Sequence record: NC_019517.1
Reading direction: 5' to 3' (one strand)
DNA: 64,000 nt
Origin: Escherichia phage FV3
Shown here: one piece after another, positions 1 through 62,013 of the stretch
Layout: each line of letters opens with the position of its first letter
Position numbering within the stretch: the first letter of the stretch is position 1
Made by a program: the position numbers and the translations under genes
The notes under the pieces: generated by a model
Seen by the model: the letters and a program-made list of their open reading frames with translations, nothing else
Told to the model about the DNA's origin: nothing
Database searches by the model: none

Positions 1-1983
1 TTATTTGATGTTATTCTTTGTATCGATCAGTTCACGGTATTCAATCATAGCAGGGGTGTCCCAATATTTCAAGCCTACATGCTTTAAAAGTGGATATTTC
101 TTTTCCAATCTTGCAATATAGGCCTTCCCGCACTTAACTCGGTTGGCGATTAAGACTTTGGCACGATGATTCAGCTCACCGTACTTCCACGTGGTGCTAC
201 CTTCCCACTTGTGGAAATGTGGCCGATAATTTCCAAAATCCTGCATGGGTATAATTTTACCTAACTGTCTATACAGGCTGTCATATGAAGTTTCATTTGC
301 TGCGCGAGTCAGTAAGAATTTCCAAGCATCCTCTTTCAACAAATGTTCCACATTCTTCTCTGTAACATATTGGCAATTAGGATCAGTCCAAAGCAGACGA
401 GATTCCGATACCAGGTACAGATCTTCCCCTTCAGGGATCTGAAGTGCTGCACGCACACGGTCATAATCTTGCTGGTAGATGTTACTCATCTGACCTAGCC
501 AACAACTTCCACGTTGGATATCCCCCTCATACGGTATGCAGTGCTTAATCTTCCTGAACTCTGCCTTGGTAATACGCTCACGACGGAAGTAACCATCCTT
601 CTCAAGTTTTTTAACCCAATAACCGGGCTCATAACGAGTTTTTGTTTCACCTTTCTTCACAGGTCGGCGAGGGAGCTCTGATAACAATTTGACCGTATCT
701 GCAAAGAACGGATGGTGTGCCGCCTCTTTAAACTCTTTTACCAGATCCGCATTCCGGCAATAGAAAACGTTGCGTCCGGTGATCTCGCTTAAGTAGTTAC
801 ACTTATTTCGGTTATATTTACCGTCTCCGTCGTTAAATACTAAATAGACTCCTCGTAAGAATTCTACCTTTCCGTAACAAGCGTAGCCTATGCGGCCTTT
901 ATTTAAGCCACCTGCGAAGATCTCGCAGTCCCCCAAACTACCTAACCCTGCTTCTTCCCAACGGCTATACATAAAATTCTTACCGAAAATGTGCCCGAAC
1001 ACTCCACTGTTCTTCATCATCTCGCGTGCTTCTGAGGATGTTTTTGCTGTCTCCAGTTCTGCAACAACTTCTGCTCCACGAAGGCGAATACCTTCTTTGA
1101 CAAAAGCTTCCAAACGCTCTTGGAATCCACCATCATCGTGACCTTCTATGGTCCATTCACGCCCTGGGTTAATATTGCAGTCTCCGATAGGGATCTCTAC
1201 ACAAATTGCAGGATAATCTGTTAGTGTTTCCAGGAACTTAGAACGGTAAGGTTGGTGACCCATTACCACACGACTCTCGTCAGAGCTGGTATATCCCTTC
1301 AGGATGGTCATCTTCCAACCATCTTTTTCATAATAATACTGCGCCTCTACCTTATCCCCCTCCAGCATTTTGCTCGTCATTGGATCGGTGACGGTGAACG
1401 GGAATTTTGCATAGCGCAGACATGATGCAATAGCAGTGCGATATTTCAGAACATGCTCTTTCTTAACATGAAACTGAACTTTTACCCCGTTGTGCTCTTC
1501 AGTCTTCCGCTCACGGATCTTGGTGACATTTGGGATACCCTGATCCAAGAACAATAGATATGTGCTTTCCACACCATTGTGCACACTGATTACATCGAAA
1601 GTGTCCACCATGCTGAACGGGGCCTTTGAACCAACACCTTTATTGCCTACCAGAGCGTTGCTGTTGCGCTTGGTTGACTCACCGAGGTTCATGAAAGTGT
1701 TGCGGACCATCTCTTCTGACATACCGAGGCCAACGTCCTGCACAAAGAAGTATGGTTCAAGATCTGTAGGAGAGTGAATGATGATCGGAACATCACCACG
1801 TCCAGACTCAACATGGGAGTCCACAGCATTGAAGATTGGCTCACGGCAGCTTGCCAGCACCTTATCTTCATAAATCCCTTTAATGATTAACCCAAAAGTC
1901 TCTTTGTTCAGAGAAATTGATCCCCTTGTGACCTCCAAATTCCCAGTTAGCACTGCTTTAGTTTCATTACTGTTTACAATCAT
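1..1983 (-). CDS. rIIA: rIIA-like protein with N-terminal GHKL (histidine-kinase-like) ATPase fold; complete ORF, stop codon at 1-3
   Basis: N-box EPIFNAVDSH, G1 box DVGLGMS and G2 box GNKGVGSKAPF align by eye with T4 rIIA RELITNMIDAH / RDFGPGMS / GGFGLGSKSPF; 660 aa against T4 rIIA 725 aa. rIIB would lie beyond the left window edge. Confidence 0.65.
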   Translation of the reverse strand: MIVNSNETKAVLTGNLEVTRGSISLNKETFGLIIKGIYEDKVLASCREPIFNAVDSHVESGRGDVPIIIHSPTDLEPYFFVQDVGLGMSEEMVRNTFMNLGESTKRNSNALVGNKGVGSKAPFSMVDTFDVISVHNGVESTYLLFLDQGIPNVTKIRERKTEEHNGVKVQFHVKKEHVLKYRTAIASCLRYAKFPFTVTDPMTSKMLEGDKVEAQYYYEKDGWKMTILKGYTSSDESRVVMGHQPYRSKFLETLTDYPAICVEIPIGDCNINPGREWTIEGHDDGGFQERLEAFVKEGIRLRGAEVVAELETAKTSSEAREMMKNSGVFGHIFGKNFMYSRWEEAGLGSLGDCEIFAGGLNKGRIGYACYGKVEFLRGVYLVFNDGDGKYNRNKCNYLSEITGRNVFYCRNADLVKEFKEAAHHPFFADTVKLLSELPRRPVKKGETKTRYEPGYWVKKLEKDGYFRRERITKAEFRKIKHCIPYEGDIQRGSCWLGQMSNIYQQDYDRVRAALQIPEGEDLYLVSESRLLWTDPNCQYVTEKNVEHLLKEDAWKFLLTRAANETSYDSLYRQLGKIIPMQDFGNYRPHFHKWEGSTTWKYGELNHRAKVLIANRVKCGKAYIARLEKKYPLLKHVGLKYWDTPAMIEYRELIDTKNNIK

Positions 1984-2480
1984 TTATTGCGCTCCTTGTA
2001 GTAGATATGACTCCCGAATTGAGCTGTCCTCTGCATCTTTTTTGCCCATTCCGGTCGTACTTTTGTTGTATGATAGTGTGTTGCTCCACCTGTTATATCC
2101 ATAGCCATGTATGCAACATGGTTGTTATTATAGACCTTTAGAAGCATCTTTGCAAGACTTTTAGCGTGATCCCATGAATCTTTTTCTGTCACCTTAAAAG
2201 TTTTGCCGTGGTTTGTCCACGAAAACTGGTTAGGTTGGTAGACAATCTTTCTTATAGTGTCTGGGTATTTAGGGTGAGATTTCCTGTTCAGTGTGGCAAA
2301 CCCAGATGCCAACATACCCATCGTGCCATCTCCTCTGGCTTCCCTGTAGATATTGCATGCCAGAATGTTCTCCTTAGTATCCGATGGCTTGCAGGTGTGA
2401 TATACTTTTTGTTTTGGTGCTGCAACAACAGGCAGCGATAAAAATGCGCTCAAAATAATAGCAAAGATTTTAATTTTCAC
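1980..2480 (-). CDS. Secreted SleB/CwlJ-family cell wall hydrolase (candidate endolysin)
   Basis: N-terminal signal peptide MKIKIFAIILSAFLSLPVVAAP; NIYREARGDG and QFSW motifs typical of Hydrolase_2; GTG start with GGAG RBS; stop overlaps rIIA start by 4 nt. Confidence 0.55.
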   Translation of the reverse strand: MKIKIFAIILSAFLSLPVVAAPKQKVYHTCKPSDTKENILACNIYREARGDGTMGMLASGFATLNRKSHPKYPDTIRKIVYQPNQFSWTNHGKTFKVTEKDSWDHAKSLAKMLLKVYNNNHVAYMAMDITGGATHYHTTKVRPEWAKKMQRTAQFGSHIYYKERNK

Positions 2481-2490
2481 AATAACTCCA

Positions 2491-2517
2491 AATAGAAAAT
2501 CCCCGCCGAAGCGGGGG
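2491..2517 (-). terminator. Rho-independent terminator (minus strand), CCCCGC-UUCG-GCGGGG hairpin plus U-tract
   Basis: Perfect 6-bp GC stem with UUCG tetraloop on the minus-strand transcript followed by ATTTTCTATTT; lies between the 126-aa gene and the SleB-like gene. Confidence 0.5.
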
Positions 2518-2529
2518 TGGTCTTAGAAA

Positions 2530-2910
2530 TTAGTCGTAGTGTGCCAGAATCTCTCCTTCGTTGCAAGTTCCCTCTACGAAGTTGTGAAGATTCCTGCATT
2601 CGTCTTGGTAGAAGAACTTACCACTTTTCAGCCGTAGACCAAACAACTCCGCATCTCCACGATGGCAAGCCTCTACAAGTTCATAGATTTCATACGGTAA
2701 CTCTCCATCGTCATGGAAGAACCCCGCTTTATCGTTGACATAGATGAAGAAATAGTCACTGCTGTCGCAAGCGTCCAATATTTTAAACCAGATTTCATCT
2801 ACATCTTTTTCTCGGATATCGATCACGCAAGTGGAGCTGCATTCGTACTCCTTCTCCGGCTCCTCGGTCAATACCACCAAGTAGTTTCCCCGCTTACCTA
2901 CTTTAGCCAT
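2530..2910 (-). CDS. Hypothetical acidic protein (126 aa)
   Basis: ORF in operon context; acidic composition; no recognisable motif. Confidence 0.4.
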   Translation of the reverse strand: MAKVGKRGNYLVVLTEEPEKEYECSSTCVIDIREKDVDEIWFKILDACDSSDYFFIYVNDKAGFFHDDGELPYEIYELVEACHRGDAELFGLRLKSGKFFYQDECRNLHNFVEGTCNEGEILAHYD

Positions 2911-2919
2911 ACAACCTCC

Positions 2920-4104
2920 TCAAGCTTTAGCTAAAATGGCGCTAAACTCTTCGCCAAACTCTTTTACAATCTTCATCAGGTTCGGGTATGCTTTGATCAG
3001 CTGAGCAACGATCTTGTCCCGGCCTTTACCAATAAGTAAGGCATTTCCTAGGGCGTTGGGTTTCATCATCGCCATAAAGACTGAGAATACAAAGTCTCGG
3101 TTCTCATCCTTGAAATTTTCCCAAAGGAAATCAAGGAAGTTTGCCACACAGCTGACAAGATCTTCGTCGGAGATACTTGCATTTTCCATCATGTTACGAA
3201 TAGCGATACACCCTTCAGACCCCAGAATCCACAAGATGTCTGGCTGCTTAGGCCCTACATACTCTTTGCAACCCCCTGCCATAATCCGACCGATTTCTGG
3301 CAAGTTTCGTTTCTTGGTGTGGTAGGTCCAGATTTCTACCGCTGCAGTGTGACCGATAGCACCTTGCAGAAGAACACGAGCCATAGCGTCAGAAATAATA
3401 CCGCTGTCAAAATCGTGCAGGATGTCAGATGCAGCAACCCAAGATCGCGGTGTAGCAAAAGCTGGACAATTAATCTCAGCCATGGCCTCATAATTATCGA
3501 TGGCTGATGGGACTCTTTTCAGATATCCAATTACCGAGGAGTGCACCCCATTAAGGAATGCATAGTCCTCAATAAACACCTCTGCATTGCTTGTAACTTC
3601 TACAATGATAAAGCGGTTAGCTAGAGGAGCTTCGAGCGCCGAAAGAACAGCACCGTCTGTAGCACGGTTACCTGCAGCTACAAAAACAGAGCCCTTAGGA
3701 AATGCATAGGTGCCGCACTTGTGGTCGAGCATAATTTGCATTGCAACCTTCTGCAGGTAGTTATCTGCATGAGTAAGCTCATCCAGAAAGATAATTCCGC
3801 TCCAGTTCGAGTCTGCAGGCCAAAATTCTGGAATTGCAAACACTGTGCGTGTAGTTCCATCTGCCTCTACAGGGATAGGTAGTCCAGATAAGTCAGCAGG
3901 ATCTTTATCTGACAGCCGCACGTCAACCAGGTTGTCATCTCGCTCACCGAACATATTATCAGCAATCTGCTTCATCACCTGACTCTTCCCCACACCCATC
4001 GGTCCTAAAATAAGAACAGATCGGTTATGACGCTGGGCAAATTGAATAATAGCTGGCAACTCGCGGACAGTGATTTGACCACTTTCGAATACGTTTCTTG
4101 ACAT
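2920..4104 (-). CDS. MoxR-like AAA+ ATPase (CobS/MoxR family, AAA_5-type)
   Basis: Walker A GPMGVGKS, Walker B IIFLDELTHAD, sensor AAGNRA; 394 aa with C-terminal extension. Confidence 0.7.
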   Translation of the reverse strand: MSRNVFESGQITVRELPAIIQFAQRHNRSVLILGPMGVGKSQVMKQIADNMFGERDDNLVDVRLSDKDPADLSGLPIPVEADGTTRTVFAIPEFWPADSNWSGIIFLDELTHADNYLQKVAMQIMLDHKCGTYAFPKGSVFVAAGNRATDGAVLSALEAPLANRFIIVEVTSNAEVFIEDYAFLNGVHSSVIGYLKRVPSAIDNYEAMAEINCPAFATPRSWVAASDILHDFDSGIISDAMARVLLQGAIGHTAAVEIWTYHTKKRNLPEIGRIMAGGCKEYVGPKQPDILWILGSEGCIAIRNMMENASISDEDLVSCVANFLDFLWENFKDENRDFVFSVFMAMMKPNALGNALLIGKGRDKIVAQLIKAYPNLMKIVKEFGEEFSAILAKA

Positions 4105-4373
4105 TAGTAAAAGTCCTCTACTTGTGTGTAAGTGTTTTCAAAGTTTTCCAAAACAGACATCACATCGGATCTGTCAATATCATACGCAACTCTCCAGCCA
4201 TATGCAACCCTTTCTGCTGTTGCCTCTTCTGGAGCTAGTCGTCTGCTGGCATAAAAGAGTGTTGGAGTACACTTTCTTGCTTGCCCTCTAACTTTCCCAT
4301 AATAATATCTGTGAATATCTTTGTCAAAATTTAATTCTTTTTCTGCACGAAGTTCGTACTGCTGGTATAACAT
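4104..4373 (-). CDS. Hypothetical protein (89 aa)
   Basis: ORF tightly packed in leftward early operon; 1-nt overlap with downstream gene. Confidence 0.4.
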   Translation of the reverse strand: MLYQQYELRAEKELNFDKDIHRYYYGKVRGQARKCTPTLFYASRRLAPEEATAERVAYGWRVAYDIDRSDVMSVLENFENTYTQVEDFY

Positions 4374-4800: not shown

Positions 4801-5058
4801 TCAGTTCACCTCTTCTTCTCGTTGCAGTTCAAGATACCCATAGGTCTGGATATCTTCAAGGGTGTGGAACTCTCCATCTGCTGCTAAGGCACGGACAACC
4901 TGGCATAGAGTTTTATAAGGTACTTTCTCCAAACCCAGATTCAGCGCAGGAAAAACCTTATCTAAGTCAACAAAATATACAAACTGTAGCTCACCAGTTT
5001 CAAAAGGCGTATCTTCGATAAACATCTTCTCGGCATTAGTCAAGATCTGCACTTTCAT
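4801..5058 (-). CDS. Hypothetical protein (85 aa)
   Basis: ORF in operon context. Confidence 0.4.
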   Translation of the reverse strand: MKVQILTNAEKMFIEDTPFETGELQFVYFVDLDKVFPALNLGLEKVPYKTLCQVVRALAADGEFHTLEDIQTYGYLELQREEEVN

Positions 5059-5435: not shown

Positions 5436-5706
5436 CTGTCATTTTACATTCTTGAAATTTTAACACAAGACGGTGATTGTGTCTAGTGTCTAAAAAGATT
5501 TTTTCGACCATCAGGCACACGGTATAACCGTCCGTCTTGTTGACAACAAAATCCCCAGGGTGAGGGAGAATGTCTCCTGGATTGGGGAAACATAACCCGC
5601 TCAAGAAGGCATCGTCGGTGGTGGACTTAATGGATTTCCACACACTATCTGCCTGAACATTCTCACCAACATAATATACACTACCACATGACTTCATCAT
5701 AGTCAA
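5428..5706 (-). CDS. Hypothetical protein (92 aa)
   Basis: ORF overlapping neighbours by 8 and 4 nt (translational coupling). Confidence 0.4.
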   Translation of the reverse strand: MTMMKSCGSVYYVGENVQADSVWKSIKSTTDDAFLSGLCFPNPGDILPHPGDFVVNKTDGYTVCLMVEKIFLDTRHNHRLVLKFQECKMTVA

Positions 5707-6602
5707 ATCTCCGCGTAAATTAAACTGGAATCAGTATACTTCTTTAACGGGTAAATATCCTGTCCGTAGATGCCGTCATTAAACACCTCATCTACCCAAA
5801 GACTGCACTTATATCCCATCATTTCTAAAACACCCAGCTCTTCTTCGGTAAACTTATCACCGCTCTTGCAAGATGTCAACACCTCATTCTGTACTCTTGC
5901 TACCTCGAAGCGATTATTGGCAATATCGCTATTGGCGATCAAATACTCACCTAAAGGGTGTGCGGCATTAAAGATGCACAGTGGACGGTTGACGTAATAG
6001 TCTCCAGGCGTATAAAAATTGTTGAGGTCTTTTACCAGAACATTCTTATCAGTCACTTCATTTATAACATCATGCATATCGCACATCTTTATATGTTTGA
6101 GGATTCCATCCCCCATCACAAAATAAAAACTTGCTGAGACACTTTCGGCATAGATCTTACTAGATCCATTGTAGTTGTATTTTACTCGGATGCTTACAGG
6201 GGTTTTGCCTGTCGCGTTAGCCATCATCCAAAGGAACGGAAGTTCAAACTTCTGCTCTGAGGAAACAAAAGGTGAAGTTGCCAGAGATCGGAAACCACCA
6301 GAGAAGTTGAAAGTTACAGAGCCGCTCCGGCGATATGATACCGCATATTCTACTTTTATATCGACATAGCCGTTGGAGTAAGTGTGGCCTCCATTATCCA
6401 GATATGTCCACTTATCAGATCCGGATACCAACCTACGCTCAATCACCTTCATTACTACAGGAATTAGCGGGTTGGTACAAACCGATTTTGAAGTAGCTTT
6501 ATCATCCAAAGCCTCGTAAATTGCAGAAAGGATATCGCCTGCTGAGAGATTGGTTGTGATATCTTGTTTCCACCGAGTGCTAAAGCTGTTAAGATTTGCC
6601 AT
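5703..6602 (-). CDS. Hypothetical protein (300 aa), first gene of leftward early operon
   Basis: Start trimmed to the ATG (MANLNS...) preceded by AGGAG RBS; the track ORF extended to 6644 would overlap the promoter. Confidence 0.45.
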   Translation of the reverse strand: MANLNSFSTRWKQDITTNLSAGDILSAIYEALDDKATSKSVCTNPLIPVVMKVIERRLVSGSDKWTYLDNGGHTYSNGYVDIKVEYAVSYRRSGSVTFNFSGGFRSLATSPFVSSEQKFELPFLWMMANATGKTPVSIRVKYNYNGSSKIYAESVSASFYFVMGDGILKHIKMCDMHDVINEVTDKNVLVKDLNNFYTPGDYYVNRPLCIFNAAHPLGEYLIANSDIANNRFEVARVQNEVLTSCKSGDKFTEEELGVLEMMGYKCSLWVDEVFNDGIYGQDIYPLKKYTDSSLIYAEI

Positions 6603-6642
6603 GATTAAGTGCTCCTGTGTTCGTTTTCTTTCGAATGGGTGC

Positions 6643-6671
6643 ACTATATCGTGGATTTAGAGTAAAGTCAA
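6643..6671 (-). promoter_or_regulatory. Sigma70-like promoter for leftward early operon (-35 TTGACT, 17-nt spacer, -10 TATAGT)
   Basis: Minus-strand reading TTGACT-N17-TATAGT about 40 nt upstream of AGGAG RBS and the ATG at 6602. Confidence 0.45.
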
Positions 6672-6684
6672 CACGTTTTTGAGG

Positions 6685-58549: not shown

Positions 58550-60097
58550 TTAGATAAAACGCTTGAACATAGAAGGTGATGAGATTGATGGAATCACACA
58601 AGGAAGTGCTACCTCCTCTTTCTCCAGGAAATTAATCGCAGAAGCTACACAGTCGGCCCAATCGTCTTTTCTGTTAAATGTTGATCTTTCCCCGTTGAAT
58701 TTTTCAAGTTCAGTCAGAAATGCTTCCAGAGTATCAGGATGGAAACTGGATTTTACAATCCTCACCATTCCTTGTTGGGCAAGATTGGCAAAAGGTGAGA
58801 ACCTTGTCAGTTTAGATTTGTTGGAAGGCATTGGGTCTTCTTCAACCCTAAACCCTTCGGCAAGCAAGGATCTGGAGGAGGTTAAGAACTCACTCTTACC
58901 TGCCTGACCGGGGTCCACAGAGAATACGATTATACAATCATCACCATCAAACTGCGCCTGTTTCCTGATGATCACATCTCGTTCACCAGCCTTTTTACAG
59001 AACTTGCCTTCCAGACCTGTGGAATACCTCCCGTCATCCACGTTCTCAGGACAATAATCCCCGGACAGGTAATAAAAGCCGTCGCTATCTTTACTTACCT
59101 TAACACTGGCGGTAAAGTCAGGAAATTTATTACCGGAAGTTCTCTCGGTTCCTGCTTTATCCCATGCCCTGCAAGACACTGATCCAAGGGGCACTCTATC
59201 GGCATCACGAAGGAAAGATCTTTGAAAATAGTTTGCACCCTCAGGCTTTGCAAACCAGTTACCATGGAGAAGCTGAGCTTTTTCAAGCTCGGGCAGACCT
59301 TCAAGGAAAGCAAGGTATTCTGGGTTGTCTCTTAAGCAGACAGGATTATCGAAGATTGTTGCGCCTATAAACGAGAATGACAACGGTCTCGGCTTGATCT
59401 CTACACCCAGTCCGTTAACCGTGGTGTATTTCTCTATCAACTCTTCTTTAGAGTCTCCCCAGATAAATTCACCGTCGCGTCGGATAAAATATCTTTTCTT
59501 ACCGCATTTCTCCGGATCTGGATACCCTTCATCGTCCAACCACCACCTAACCAGTTTGGCAAGCATGTGTTCTGAATCGGGGTTACAGCTGATAACCATT
59601 CTTGATGGATACTTTGACTGAGATCTCAGACGAGACATCAGATAGTCTATCTGCTCCCATTCGAACTGCGTGCCCTCATCGAAGCAAACCATGGTATACT
59701 CAAGCCCTTGATGGTTAAGCTTATCTTGTACATACTCCATGTGGCAGTATTTTACAACAGCTCCCTTTTTGCTTCTATCCCACTTGCCAGTGTTCGGATC
59801 AAACCGTGGAAAAATGAACTTATGATCCTTCTCTCTGAACTTTGGCTTAATGTTTTCAGGCAGATCACTATAAATAGCTACTGCTTTAGGCCATAGTCCA
59901 CCCTCACCTTCCAACTGTGGGGTTGTTCTTCGGAACATAACCACAGAGCTGTGGGGGTCATCAATAATTTTAAGTGGCATCAGCTGCAAGAGGAACGACT
60001 TGCCAGACCCTGCGGCACCGCCGATTACCAAAATATCTGCATCGTTTTCGAGGATCATCTTCTGCTTTTCAGAACACGGTCCGTAAATCTTAGACAT
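58550..60097 (-). CDS. terL: Terminase large subunit
   Basis: Walker A VIGGAAGSGKS near the N-terminus; 515 aa; followed by portal. Confidence 0.75.
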   Translation of the reverse strand: MSKIYGPCSEKQKMILENDADILVIGGAAGSGKSFLLQLMPLKIIDDPHSSVVMFRRTTPQLEGEGGLWPKAVAIYSDLPENIKPKFREKDHKFIFPRFDPNTGKWDRSKKGAVVKYCHMEYVQDKLNHQGLEYTMVCFDEGTQFEWEQIDYLMSRLRSQSKYPSRMVISCNPDSEHMLAKLVRWWLDDEGYPDPEKCGKKRYFIRRDGEFIWGDSKEELIEKYTTVNGLGVEIKPRPLSFSFIGATIFDNPVCLRDNPEYLAFLEGLPELEKAQLLHGNWFAKPEGANYFQRSFLRDADRVPLGSVSCRAWDKAGTERTSGNKFPDFTASVKVSKDSDGFYYLSGDYCPENVDDGRYSTGLEGKFCKKAGERDVIIRKQAQFDGDDCIIVFSVDPGQAGKSEFLTSSRSLLAEGFRVEEDPMPSNKSKLTRFSPFANLAQQGMVRIVKSSFHPDTLEAFLTELEKFNGERSTFNRKDDWADCVASAINFLEKEEVALPCVIPSISSPSMFKRFI

Positions 60098-60384
60098 TAA
60101 CCTCTCTCCTTTGGAAACAGTGTTCTAATATAGTCTTGCAAAATGATCAATTTAGCTCTATCATTGCTACAAGACAGATTATTATCCCTCATAATGCCAG
60201 AATTCACTGCATCTGGCGCACCTTTCTTCAAAGGCATAGCTTTAGCAGGTGGTTTCATGGCACCTTCTGGGGGTTTAACAATCAACCTTCCTACATCAGG
60301 AGGGTCAATCTTGTATTCTCTCTCAACGCTGGTTGCACACCCACATAATAACAAGCACACAATAAACAGTGTAGCAACTCTCAT
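60097..60384 (-). CDS. o-spanin-like outer-membrane lipoprotein (Rz1-like)
   Basis: Signal peptide with LLCGC lipobox-like motif; Pro-rich mature region; stop overlaps the terL start (TAATG). Confidence 0.5.
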   Translation of the reverse strand: MRVATLFIVCLLLCGCATSVEREYKIDPPDVGRLIVKPPEGAMKPPAKAMPLKKGAPDAVNSGIMRDNNLSCSNDRAKLIILQDYIRTLFPKERG

Positions 60385-60779
60385 TGATCCTCCTGATTGA
60401 TACTCTCATTATAAATATCTATAAGCTGATCAGGAAGTGTTGACTTCTTGCCTTCAGGTGACTGGAGGTAGATAATCTGCTTTTCTTTACCTGCCTTCTC
60501 AGCCATATTTAATTTATCCTGCAGATCAGAAAGGGATTTTTCAAGGTTTTTAACCTCCTCTGCGTGGCCCATTTTAATTTTGTCGGCCTGCTTTTGTTGC
60601 TGATCAAGGATCCGTTCCCACTTTAACTCTGTTGCTGACACACCTTCTTGGTAGGCATCATTAAGCTTAGAGTTAAACCAATACACGGCCCCAAGATAAG
60701 CTGTACCTAGCGCAGCTGCAAAAACTAAACCTTTTATGATCCCTCTATACCTGCTCAGCCATGTTAAAACTGAAATCAT
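60381..60779 (-). CDS. i-spanin-like protein (Rz-like)
   Basis: N-terminal TM segment GLVFAAALGTAYLGAVYWF then charged coiled-coil periplasmic domain; 4-nt overlap with the o-spanin start. Confidence 0.55.
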   Translation of the reverse strand: MISVLTWLSRYRGIIKGLVFAAALGTAYLGAVYWFNSKLNDAYQEGVSATELKWERILDQQQKQADKIKMGHAEEVKNLEKSLSDLQDKLNMAEKAGKEKQIIYLQSPEGKKSTLPDQLIDIYNESINQEDQ

Positions 60780-61200: not shown

Positions 61201-61277
61201 TGGTCTCCACGGAGTGATTCGAACACTCGACCTCCTGATCCCAAATCAGGCGCTCTACCAAGCTGAGCTACGCGGAG
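61201..61277 (-). tRNA. tRNA-Pro (anticodon TGG)
   Basis: Manual cloverleaf: acceptor CTCCGCG/CGTGGAG, D-stem GCTC/GAGC, anticodon loop TTTGGGA, T-loop TTCGAAT, encoded CCA. Confidence 0.7.
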
Positions 61278-61287
61278 TATTTATAAT

Positions 61288-61362
61288 TTGGTGGCCCTGG
61301 GTGGAATTGAACCACCGTCTGGCGATTATGAGTCGCTTGCTTGAACCTTCCAGCTACAGGGC
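61288..61362 (-). tRNA. tRNA-Met (anticodon CAT)
   Basis: Acceptor GGCCCTG/CAGGGCC, anticodon loop CTCATAA, T-arm GGTGG-TTCAATT-CCACC, encoded CCA. Confidence 0.6.
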
Positions 61363-61363
61363 C

Positions 61364-61440
61364 ATGGTGCTGATAGCAGGACTCGAACCTGCAACCTATT
61401 GATTACAAATCAATTGCACTACCAATTGTGCTACATCAGC
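61364..61440 (-). tRNA. tRNA-Thr (anticodon TGT)
   Basis: Acceptor GCTGATG/TATCAGC, D-stem GCAC/GTGC, anticodon arm ATTGA-TTTGTAA-TCAAT, T-loop TTCGAGT, encoded CCA. Confidence 0.7.
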
Positions 61441-61443
61441 AAA

Positions 61444-61544
61444 AAGGTGCTAGGTGATGGAATCGAACCACCTATGTATTCAACGACTACCTCGTCTATT
61501 TTCAGGATTAAAAATCCTCGCCCTTGCCAAAGGGCTTACCTAGC
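61444..61544 (-). tRNA. Atypical tRNA-like gene (about 100 nt); anticodon loop reads TTT (Lys-like) with an about 30-nt variable-region insertion
   Basis: Perfect 7-bp acceptor pairing GCTAGGT/ACCTAGC about 100 nt apart, D-arm GCCC-TTTGGCAA-GGGC, anticodon arm AGGA-TTTTTAA-TCCT, T-arm GGTGG-TTCGATT-CCATC; CCA not fully encoded. Confidence 0.4.
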
Positions 61545-61642
61545 TCAGTATGTTGACCATGTTGCTAGTCGGCGATGACGACTGTAACATTTGATAATCC
61601 GGTTCTGCTTCCGGCTTTCGCTTAATTACAAGGTCAACAATA

Positions 61643-61733
61643 TGGCTGAGGGTAATGGAATCGAACCATCATCGAGTCATCCTCAACGGGACGGTTTTCA
61701 AGACCGCTTGAGCACCATTGCTCCCTACCCTCA
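61643..61733 (-). tRNA. tRNA-Ser (anticodon TGA), type II with long variable arm
   Basis: Acceptor TGAGGGT/ACCCTCA, anticodon region GCGGTCTTGAAAACCGT similar to E. coli tRNA-Ser(UGA), T-loop TTCGATT, encoded GCCA. Confidence 0.65.
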
Positions 61734-61847
61734 TTTATAAACAATACTGATAATGACACTGATTTTCGAGCAGTTAGTGACTAGTATAAACGACGATAAA
61801 TATCAATGCCATTATCTGTATGATTTATGCATTTAAAAATATAAATT

Positions 61848-61934
61848 TGGTGGGGAGTGGTGGAGTCGAACCACCCGAGTCGCAATGACAATAGATTTAC
61901 AGTCTACACCGCTACCTCTACGGGATAACTCCCC
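61848..61934 (-). tRNA. tRNA-Tyr (anticodon GTA), type II
   Basis: Acceptor GGGGAGT/ACTCCCC, anticodon arm AGACTGTAAATCT as in E. coli tRNA-Tyr, long variable arm, T-loop TTCGACT, encoded CCA. Confidence 0.7.
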
Positions 61935-61938
61935 AATT

Positions 61939-62013
61939 TGGCACCCCGTACTGGACTCGAACCAGTGTCAACGGCTTAGAAGGCCGCTGCTTTATCCACT
62001 AAGCTAACAGGGC
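61939..62013 (-). tRNA. tRNA-Arg (anticodon TCT)
   Basis: Acceptor GCCCTGT/ACGGGGT (with G-U pairs), D-stem GCTT/AAGC, anticodon arm GCGGC-CTTCTAA-GCCGT, T-arm ACTGG-TTCGAGT-CCAGT, encoded CCA. Confidence 0.65.

Follow-up and report, generated by a model that had tools for sequence, protein, structure and literature searches.

An rIIA gene and a probably accessory SleB/CwlJ-family hydrolase gene with a predicted signal peptide in Escherichia phage FV3: a known Vequintavirus locus

The DNA analyzed here, called the window below, is a stretch of 64,000 nucleotides (nt) from Escherichia phage FV3 (NC_019517.1). Its first 2,480 nt carry two adjoining genes on the minus strand, one for rIIA and one for a cell-wall hydrolase of the SleB/CwlJ family. 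With a probability of roughly 0.8, these are two ordinary annotated genes of the leftward early/replication unit of Vequintavirus, namely rIIA and an accessory, exported hydrolase. The locus is already known; it was published in 2013 for phage rV5 with the same coordinates (Kropinski et al., PMC3606486). Published rV5 annotation, together with the convention by which such genomes are opened, accounts for the genes, their overlap, the terminator and the absence of rIIB. The main elements, in window coordinates, are the following.

1..1983, minus strand: rIIA gene (gene 1), open reading frame (ORF) of 660 amino acids (aa), ATG start, stop codon at 1..3
1543..1836, minus strand: GHKL/Bergerat ATPase-like region of rIIA, residues 50-147, HATPase_c_3
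1980..2480, minus strand: SleB/CwlJ-family (Hydrolase_2) cell-wall hydrolase gene (gene 2), ORF of 166 aa, GTG start
2340..2342, minus strand: codon of Glu47, the predicted catalytic glutamate in a Y-x-E-x-R motif, invariant and aligned with SleB
2421..2480, minus strand: coding region of the predicted Sec signal peptide, residues 1-20, MKIKIFAIILSAFLSLPVVA, predicted cleavage between VVA and AP

In rV5, gene 1 is rIIA (1..1983, 660 aa), gene 2 is a cell wall hydrolase with PF07486 (1980..2480, 166 aa), gene 3 lies at 2530..2910 and a MoxR gene at 2920..4104 (PMC3606486, Table S3). Within the phage collection, the best match to the first 6 kb of the window is Vequintavirus SYGMH1, at 97.8% nucleotide identity. 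Matches to the same 6 kb occur in 123 phage records; in 110 they are collinear and span at least 80% of the query, and the annotation in these collinear records runs rIIA, cell wall hydrolase or SleB, and MoxR ATPase. The first-pass annotation had regarded the arrangement as unusual. That description is not supported, because the same pair forms rV5 genes 1 and 2 at identical coordinates and the 110 records are collinear with it.

Gene 1 is a full-length rIIA with a GHKL-type N-terminus and a family-specific C-terminal part. In a profile search, residues 1-658 of the 660-aa protein matched PHROG 612, 'RIIA lysis inhibitor', from end to end (positions 1-724 of 725, E 8.9e-124), and the Pfam domain HATPase_c_3 was matched at residues 50-147 with 34.9 bits against a cut-off of 25. 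The motifs FNAVDS (N-box-like), DVGLGMS and GNKGVGSK were read from the translation of the GHKL region and aligned with T4 rIIA, whose sequence was taken from NC_000866. BLASTP against T4 rIIA gave 28% identity over 198 aa, covering residues 1-190 (E 4e-21), and the alignment begins at residue 1 in both proteins, which supports the rIIA start codon and, with it, the 4-nt overlap described below. PHROG 612, HATPase_c_3 and the T4 alignment thus agree with the earlier description of an rIIA-like protein with a GHKL N-terminus. Membership in another GHKL family lacking rIIA similarity was examined by profile and structure search and was not found. A PDB search with the 660-aa protein returned marginal Hsp90/TRAP1 GHKL matches alone (E ~0.1) and no solved rIIA relative; such weak matches beside strong rIIA matches indicate that it is orthologous to neither MutL nor Hsp90.

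By homology with the T4 proteins, rIIA and rIIB probably protect against Rex-like abortive infection and premature envelope failure. The two proteins would act as a membrane-associated pair of the T4 type, made early, which would keep envelope and energetic integrity and guard against prophage-encoded Rex-type abortive infection. The searchable literature yielded no rII experiment in any Vequintavirus.

The rIIB gene had been predicted just past the window edge, and the relatives bear this out. In 97% identical relatives linearised elsewhere, rIIB starts 10 nt beyond rIIA and is followed by helicase, methyltransferase and primase/helicase genes. Genomes of rV5-like phages are conventionally opened at rIIA (PMC4591320), which is why the rIIA stop codon ends at base 1 and rIIB falls outside the window. 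The linearised record closes with rIIB at its opposite end.

The product of gene 2 was claimed to be a SleB/CwlJ-type hydrolase, and the claim is upheld. The Pfam family Hydrolase_2 (PF07486) is matched with 70.1 bits against a cut-off of 27 over essentially the whole domain (profile positions 2-100 of 100), and in phmmer the 166-aa protein matches the catalytic domains of SleB from B. cereus and B. anthracis (4f55, 4fet). PHROG 938, described as 'endolysin', also matches it. The YREARGD segment of the hydrolase is aligned with YGESRGE of SleB (the GESRGE motif), and its Glu47 is invariant in all nine aligned phage proteins, that is, the window hydrolase and eight homologues from eight other groups. 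The SleB glutamate aligned with Glu47 is the catalytic residue of SleB. Hydrolase_2 was the sole domain in the Pfam scan, with no peptidoglycan-binding domain (PG_binding_1) detected in the 166-aa protein, which makes the hydrolase a catalytic-domain-only member of the family. The peptidoglycan of E. coli has no muramic-delta-lactam, the feature recognised by SleB and CwlJ; the substrate determinants of the window hydrolase must therefore differ from theirs. Judged from its sequence, the protein is probably a Sec-exported, disulfide-stabilised periplasmic enzyme that cleaves glycan strands using Glu47. It would act independently of the holin, in an accessory role, and would assist either lysis or the remodelling of the sacculus.

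The predicted export depends on the N-terminus, which reads MKIK-IFAIILSAFLSLPVVA followed by AP. By a rule-based reading it divides into an n-region (MKIK, with two Lys), an h-region (IFAIILSAFLSL, maximum KD12 2.71) and a c-region (PVVA before AP), in which positions -5, -3 and -1 are occupied by Pro, Val and Ala, respectively. All eight aligned homologues, from eight phage groups, have an N-terminal hydrophobic stretch. An AxA-type (small-x-small) site follows it in seven of the nine aligned proteins, or six of the eight homologues; in the PAK_P2 and Cr30 homologues no such site was found in the alignment. The sites in the homologues are PVLA before K, SALA before K, PVVA before Q, PVVA before K, SQA before S and AQA before K, in sequences that are otherwise divergent. 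The signal peptide that had been claimed for the hydrolase is thus supported by its three regions and by the homologues. As a prediction, export by the Sec route is well supported by these rules and comparisons; the signal peptide would be cleaved, and the hydrolase would reach the periplasm without a holin. The predicted mature protein, starting at Ala21 or Pro22, has a mass of about 16.9 kDa.

Paired Cys residues are present in the mature parts of the hydrolase homologues, with a 12-residue spacing that is fixed in the rV5-like and phi92-like groups. Their occurrence across divergent homologues fits a periplasmic disulfide, and the window protein probably adopts a periplasmic fold with one disulfide, Cys30-Cys42. 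The first Cys is residue 30 and no lipobox is present, so a lipoprotein reading of the hydrolase was rejected. Homologues of the hydrolase are reported for all Vequintavirinae genera, and the one in Certrevirus CB7 is described as having a signal peptide and as being toxic on expression (PMC7344957).

It is unlikely that the N-terminal segment is instead an uncleaved signal anchor or signal-anchor-release (SAR) domain, which would hold the enzyme tethered and inactive until the inner membrane depolarises. A lone N-terminal hydrophobic helix is compatible with this reading, and tethering would account for the tolerance of a muralytic enzyme that is made early. SAR domains, however, are rich in Gly, Ala and Ser, whereas the h-region here is strongly hydrophobic and rich in I, F and L. 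Moreover, Pro at -5 and V-x-A at -3/-1 are what signal peptidase I would be expected to cleave, and AxA-type sites recur in seven of the nine aligned proteins in spite of their divergence.

The relation of the hydrolase to lysis was considered together with the spanin genes of the window.

60097..60384, minus strand: o-spanin gene, lipobox LLLCGC
60381..60779, minus strand: i-spanin gene

The spanin genes (PHROG 1267 and 4297, both Rz-like) adjoin the gene for the large terminase (TerL) and lie 58 kb from the hydrolase gene, as remote from it as the first-pass annotation had stated; spanins beside the terminase have been reported for this subfamily (PMC7344957). Phage rV5 encodes a PF00959 lysozyme, Gp89, and a proposed holin, gp129 (PMC3606486). 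LysECP26, a 156-aa protein with 62% identity to the lambda lysozyme, has been purified and shown to be active (PMC9728275). Its published 5' sequence was not found in the 64,000-nt window with up to 3 mismatches allowed, which places the canonical endolysin gene outside the window. The signal peptide, the position in the early/replication block behind the terminator t003 and the remote spanins all set the hydrolase apart from a holin-dependent endolysin of a lysis cassette. With a separate lysozyme endolysin and remote spanins, the SleB-like protein is an additional muralytic enzyme, predicted to be exported and accessory in role, and not the endolysin of the lysis cassette.

That the SleB-like protein is the real endolysin of the phage, acting through its signal peptide independently of a holin, has a low probability. 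The 'endolysin' label in several GenBank records and in the description of PHROG 938 speaks for it, as do the signal peptide, which resembles that of exported endolysins of some phages, and the toxicity of the homologue on expression (PMC7344957). Against these points, rV5-like phages encode a separate lambda-type lysozyme, whose lytic activity was demonstrated for LysECP26 (PMC9728275). The T5-like carriers of a homologue also encode a lysozyme and a holin in the early-gene region (PMC3326045). The gene in the window stands in the early/replication block behind a terminator and not with late or lysis genes.

The transcription signals around the hydrolase gene are given below.

2486..2489, minus strand: GGAG, Shine-Dalgarno sequence of the hydrolase gene, 5 nt before the GTG
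2490..2516, minus strand: intrinsic terminator, a perfect GC hairpin CCCCGC-TTCG-GCGGGG with ATTTTCTATTT after it, located between genes 3 and 2, equal to rV5 t003
2127..2155, minus strand: sigma-70-like match TTGCAA-17-TATAAT, within the hydrolase ORF, about 145 nt ahead of the rIIA start codon
6643..6671, minus strand: TTGACT-17-TATAGT, nearest upstream strong sigma-70 promoter of the leftward unit, equal to rV5 P010

Terminator t003 was listed for rV5 at 2490..2516 (-) with a sequence identical to that of the window and an energy of -16 kcal/mol (PMC3606486, Table S4). The rV5 authors treated genes 10-1-238-164 as one leftward unit with promoter P010 at 6636..6681 (PMC3606486). No sigma-70 promoter was found between t003 and the hydrolase start, where there is room for just about 20 nt. 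Since the hydrolase gene stands directly behind the terminator with no promoter in this gap, its expression by read-through is predicted to be reduced. The toxic hydrolase, and rIIA and rIIB behind it, would be insulated from upstream early transcription and would be made at a reduced level by read-through from the upstream promoter.

A terminator-like hairpin with a T-run also stands directly upstream of the homologous hydrolase gene in Seunavirus, Certrevirus, Justusliebigvirus, Phapecoctavirus and Pakpunavirus, at these positions in the loci compared:

L003, ~4940..4960: hairpin upstream of the SleB-like gene
L006, ~4958..4990: hairpin upstream of the SleB-like gene
L004, ~4918..4940: hairpin upstream of the SleB-like gene
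L005, ~4902..4922: hairpin upstream of the SleB-like gene
L009, ~2282..2310: hairpin upstream of the SleB-like gene

The hairpin sequences are unrelated among the six phage groups, Vequintavirus included. In the two phi92/phAPEC8-like loci the hairpin is followed by a promoter, TTGCAA-17-TACAAT or TATACT. The recurrence of a hairpin before the SleB-like gene in six groups suggests conserved transcriptional insulation.

The sigma-70-like match within the hydrolase ORF agrees with the consensus at 10 of 12 positions, both hexamers are conserved in two relatives, and it is absent from the rV5 promoter list. Across the region, 18 promoter-like matches were found compared with 12.7 +/- 3.6 in shuffles. 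Because this number is barely above that of the shuffles, the match at 2127..2155 is kept as a possibility: it may give rIIA an independent transcript, or it may be a chance match.

The two genes meet on the minus strand in the sequence TACAAGGAGCGCAATAAATGATTG, which holds two elements.

1980..1983, minus strand: ATGA overlap of 4 nt, made of the rIIA ATG (1983..1981) and the hydrolase TGA (1982..1980)
1992..1997, minus strand: AAGGAG, Shine-Dalgarno sequence of rIIA, 8 nt upstream of its ATG and within the 3' end of gene 2

The overlap of the rIIA start with the hydrolase stop, as first reported, is plainly seen, and both reading frames are genuine genes, not products of chance. A 4-nt overlap is, however, a common junction type in this genome and reflects tight gene packing. 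In the leftward gene block of the relative ECP26, overlaps of 1 or 4 nt occur at 5 of the 16 tabulated junctions. The rIIA gene has its own strong AAGGAG, identical in two relatives. The further claim that the overlap represents a meaningful direct coupling was therefore not sustained, given this ribosome-binding sequence, the frequency of such overlaps and the separability of the two genes across lineages.

Evidence for separability comes from other phage groups. By tblastn, the hydrolase family was found in 1,330 phage records. In Henunavirus the order is hydrolase, a 76-aa protein with two hydrophobic segments, rIIA (660 aa, PHROG 612, E 3e-101) and rIIB (confirmed by PHROG 609, E 3e-64). 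In Seunavirus KE23 it is hydrolase, HNH endonuclease, a 60-aa protein with two transmembrane segments (2-TM), rIIA and rIIB. In Certrevirus the hydrolase is followed by a 65-aa 2-TM protein, with no rIIA or rIIB. This small protein has been proposed as a class II holin, and the absence of rIIA and rIIB from Certrevirus was reported in the same work (PMC7344957). The small ORFs with two hydrophobic segments after the SleB-like gene lie as follows.

L012, 4509..4739: Henunavirus
L003, 6091..6273: Seunavirus
L006, 5528..5725: Certrevirus

Such an ORF precedes rIIA in Henunavirus and Seunavirus and has no counterpart in the window at 1980..1983. A tblastn search of the window for homologues of these sister-genus ORFs gave nothing credible (best E 0.02), and similarity of the three 2-TM proteins to one another was not detectable. 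In Justusliebigvirus and Phapecoctavirus (the phi92-like and phAPEC8-like phages), T5-like phages (T5.083), Sugarlandvirus, Pakpunavirus and Caulobacter phage Cr30, the hydrolase gene is found among early/DNA-metabolism genes with no adjoining rII. The occurrence of the hydrolase without rII, of rIIA without the hydrolase, and of intervening genes in the sister genera shows that the two genes are separable. Direct abutment of hydrolase and rIIA is a genus-level feature of Vequintavirus, and the neighbourhood is most simply read as lineage-specific, the outcome of inherited synteny and tight packing, and not as a functional module.

Two side observations concern these loci. In the Salmonella phage KE23 locus (L003, 3679..4923 and 5474..6103), mobile elements stand on both sides of the SleB-like gene, an annotated transposase upstream and the HNH endonuclease between it and rIIA. 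In rV5 Table S3, 'T5.083' is given as the homologue of gene 3 (window 2530..2910 (-)); as T5.083 is the SleB-like hydrolase of T5, gene 2 was probably meant, and the published table has the name one row out of place.

A functional account of the neighbourhood is improbable. It would make the hydrolase and rIIA/rIIB a lysis-control module in which coupling sets their ratio; the rII proteins might, for example, stabilise the envelope against the early periplasmic hydrolase of the phage itself, or the locus might derive from a cassette of secreted lysin, small 2-TM pinholin and rII. It could draw on the order SleB, rIIA and rIIB in Vequintavirus, Seunavirus and Henunavirus, on the 60-76-aa proteins with two hydrophobic segments after the hydrolase gene in three sister genera (that of Certrevirus being the proposed class II holin of PMC7344957), and on the 4-nt overlap in the window. 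Certrevirus, however, has the hydrolase and the small membrane protein but no rIIA/rIIB (PMC7344957), and the hydrolases of the phi92-like, phAPEC8-like, T5-like, Sugarlandvirus, Pakpunavirus and Cr30 phages have no adjoining rII. T4 rIIA has no hydrolase neighbour, an HNH endonuclease is tolerated between the two genes, rIIA has its own Shine-Dalgarno sequence, and the junction type differs between genera.

A broader version of this idea, to which we likewise give little weight, is that the SleB-like transglycosylase, the small 2-TM protein and rIIA/rIIB of Vequintavirinae come from one envelope-control module, and that early exported SleB-like hydrolases have a function before lysis. If this were true, the small 2-TM protein would have been lost in Vequintavirus, the rII proteins would buffer the membrane against the early periplasmic muralytic activity of the phage itself, and the early Sec-exported SleB-like hydrolases of large virulent phages of Gram-negative hosts would, for instance, remodel the sacculus.

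A virion-associated lysin for DNA injection was rejected as extremely improbable: peptidoglycan hydrolases are often carried in phage virions, but a Sec signal peptide would take the protein out of the cytoplasm, where virions are assembled, and into the periplasm; the structural genes are distant from the early/replication block that contains gene 2; and the candidate virion lysin in the subfamily is a gp25-like baseplate protein (PMC7344957).

Several points weigh against reading the locus as rIIA plus an accessory exported hydrolase. The signal peptide call was made from sequence rules and homologue comparison. The timing and level of expression are read from predicted signals. Several GenBank records call the hydrolase 'endolysin'. 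The order of SleB followed by rIIA is kept in three Vequintavirinae genera (Vequintavirus, Seunavirus and Henunavirus) and could reflect function as well as shared ancestry. In the searchable literature, no experiment on the gene 2 protein or its Vequintavirus orthologues was found.

Other features of the window were also recorded. In the region 2920..4373 (-), a MoxR-like AAA+ ATPase of 394 aa (PHROG 1297, E 1.6e-110) is encoded, and the start of its gene overlaps the stop of a gene for an 89-aa protein (PHROG 13164) by 1 nt; no vWA partner of the ATPase was seen in the neighbouring ORFs scanned. Within the tRNA cluster at 61201..62013, a tRNA-like gene of 99 nt (61446..61544 (-)) was left without an identity by ARAGORN ('atcc' anticodon) and scored 35.5 bits with the Rfam tRNA model, just above the gathering threshold. 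It folds into a cloverleaf whose extra arm is long and whose anticodon arm is unusual (z = -3.7). Copies with at least 99% identity occur in 93 rV5-like records, some annotated as tRNA-OTHER, some as tRNA-Lys and some not at all. Finally, the host label Campylobacter jejuni looks doubtful in 16 to 23 records named 'Campylobacter phage', which either share at least 90% identity with the window DNA or contain phi92-like hydrolase copies.

Many large virulent phages of Gram-negative hosts have a small SleB-family hydrolase, predicted to be Sec-exported, among their early/replication genes besides a canonical endolysin. An experimentally established role of phage SleB-family hydrolases was not found in the searchable literature.

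Comparison with known systems places the locus as follows. The window resembles rV5 in gene order, coordinates, lengths, Pfam assignments and the sequence of t003. The predicted protein masses are slightly apart (75,709 vs 75,811 Da for rIIA), and the window is therefore from a close relative of rV5 and not from rV5 itself.

In comparison with T4, the GHKL-like N-terminus of rIIA is alignable from residue 1 and the window protein fits the rIIA profile over its full length. T4 rIIA, however, has 725 aa against 660 aa, and the C-terminal two-thirds of the window protein are not alignable with it pairwise. In T4, as in the relatives of the window, rIIB directly follows rIIA, and the T4 and rV5-like records are both opened at rIIA. 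The gene preceding rIIA differs, being rIIA.1/gene 60 (gp60) in T4 and the hydrolase gene in the window.

With SleB and CwlJ of Bacillus, the window hydrolase shares the catalytic domain family and the conserved Glu motif. It differs from SleB in having no N-terminal PG_binding_1 domain, the catalytic domain instead following the signal peptide, and from both in its predicted export to a Gram-negative periplasm. With rV5 Gp89 and LysECP26, it has in common that all are small peptidoglycan-degrading enzymes of the same phage genus, but these two are PF00959 lysozymes of the lambda-R/T4 type, whereas the window enzyme is a Hydrolase_2 protein with a predicted signal peptide, and its gene stands in the early block.

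Further parallels are the SleB-like proteins of other large phages (CB7_83/CR3_087, T5.083, and those of Sugarlandvirus, PAK_P2 (gp154c) and the phi92/phAPEC8-like phages). Like the window hydrolase, they are single-domain proteins of 150-190 aa that have a hydrophobic N-terminal stretch and share the invariant Glu and the paired Cys, and their genes stand among early/DNA-metabolism genes, outside any lysis cassette and often after a hairpin terminator. Vequintavirus alone has the hydrolase gene directly abutting rIIA, whereas its sister genera interpose a small 2-TM ORF, an HNH endonuclease or both.

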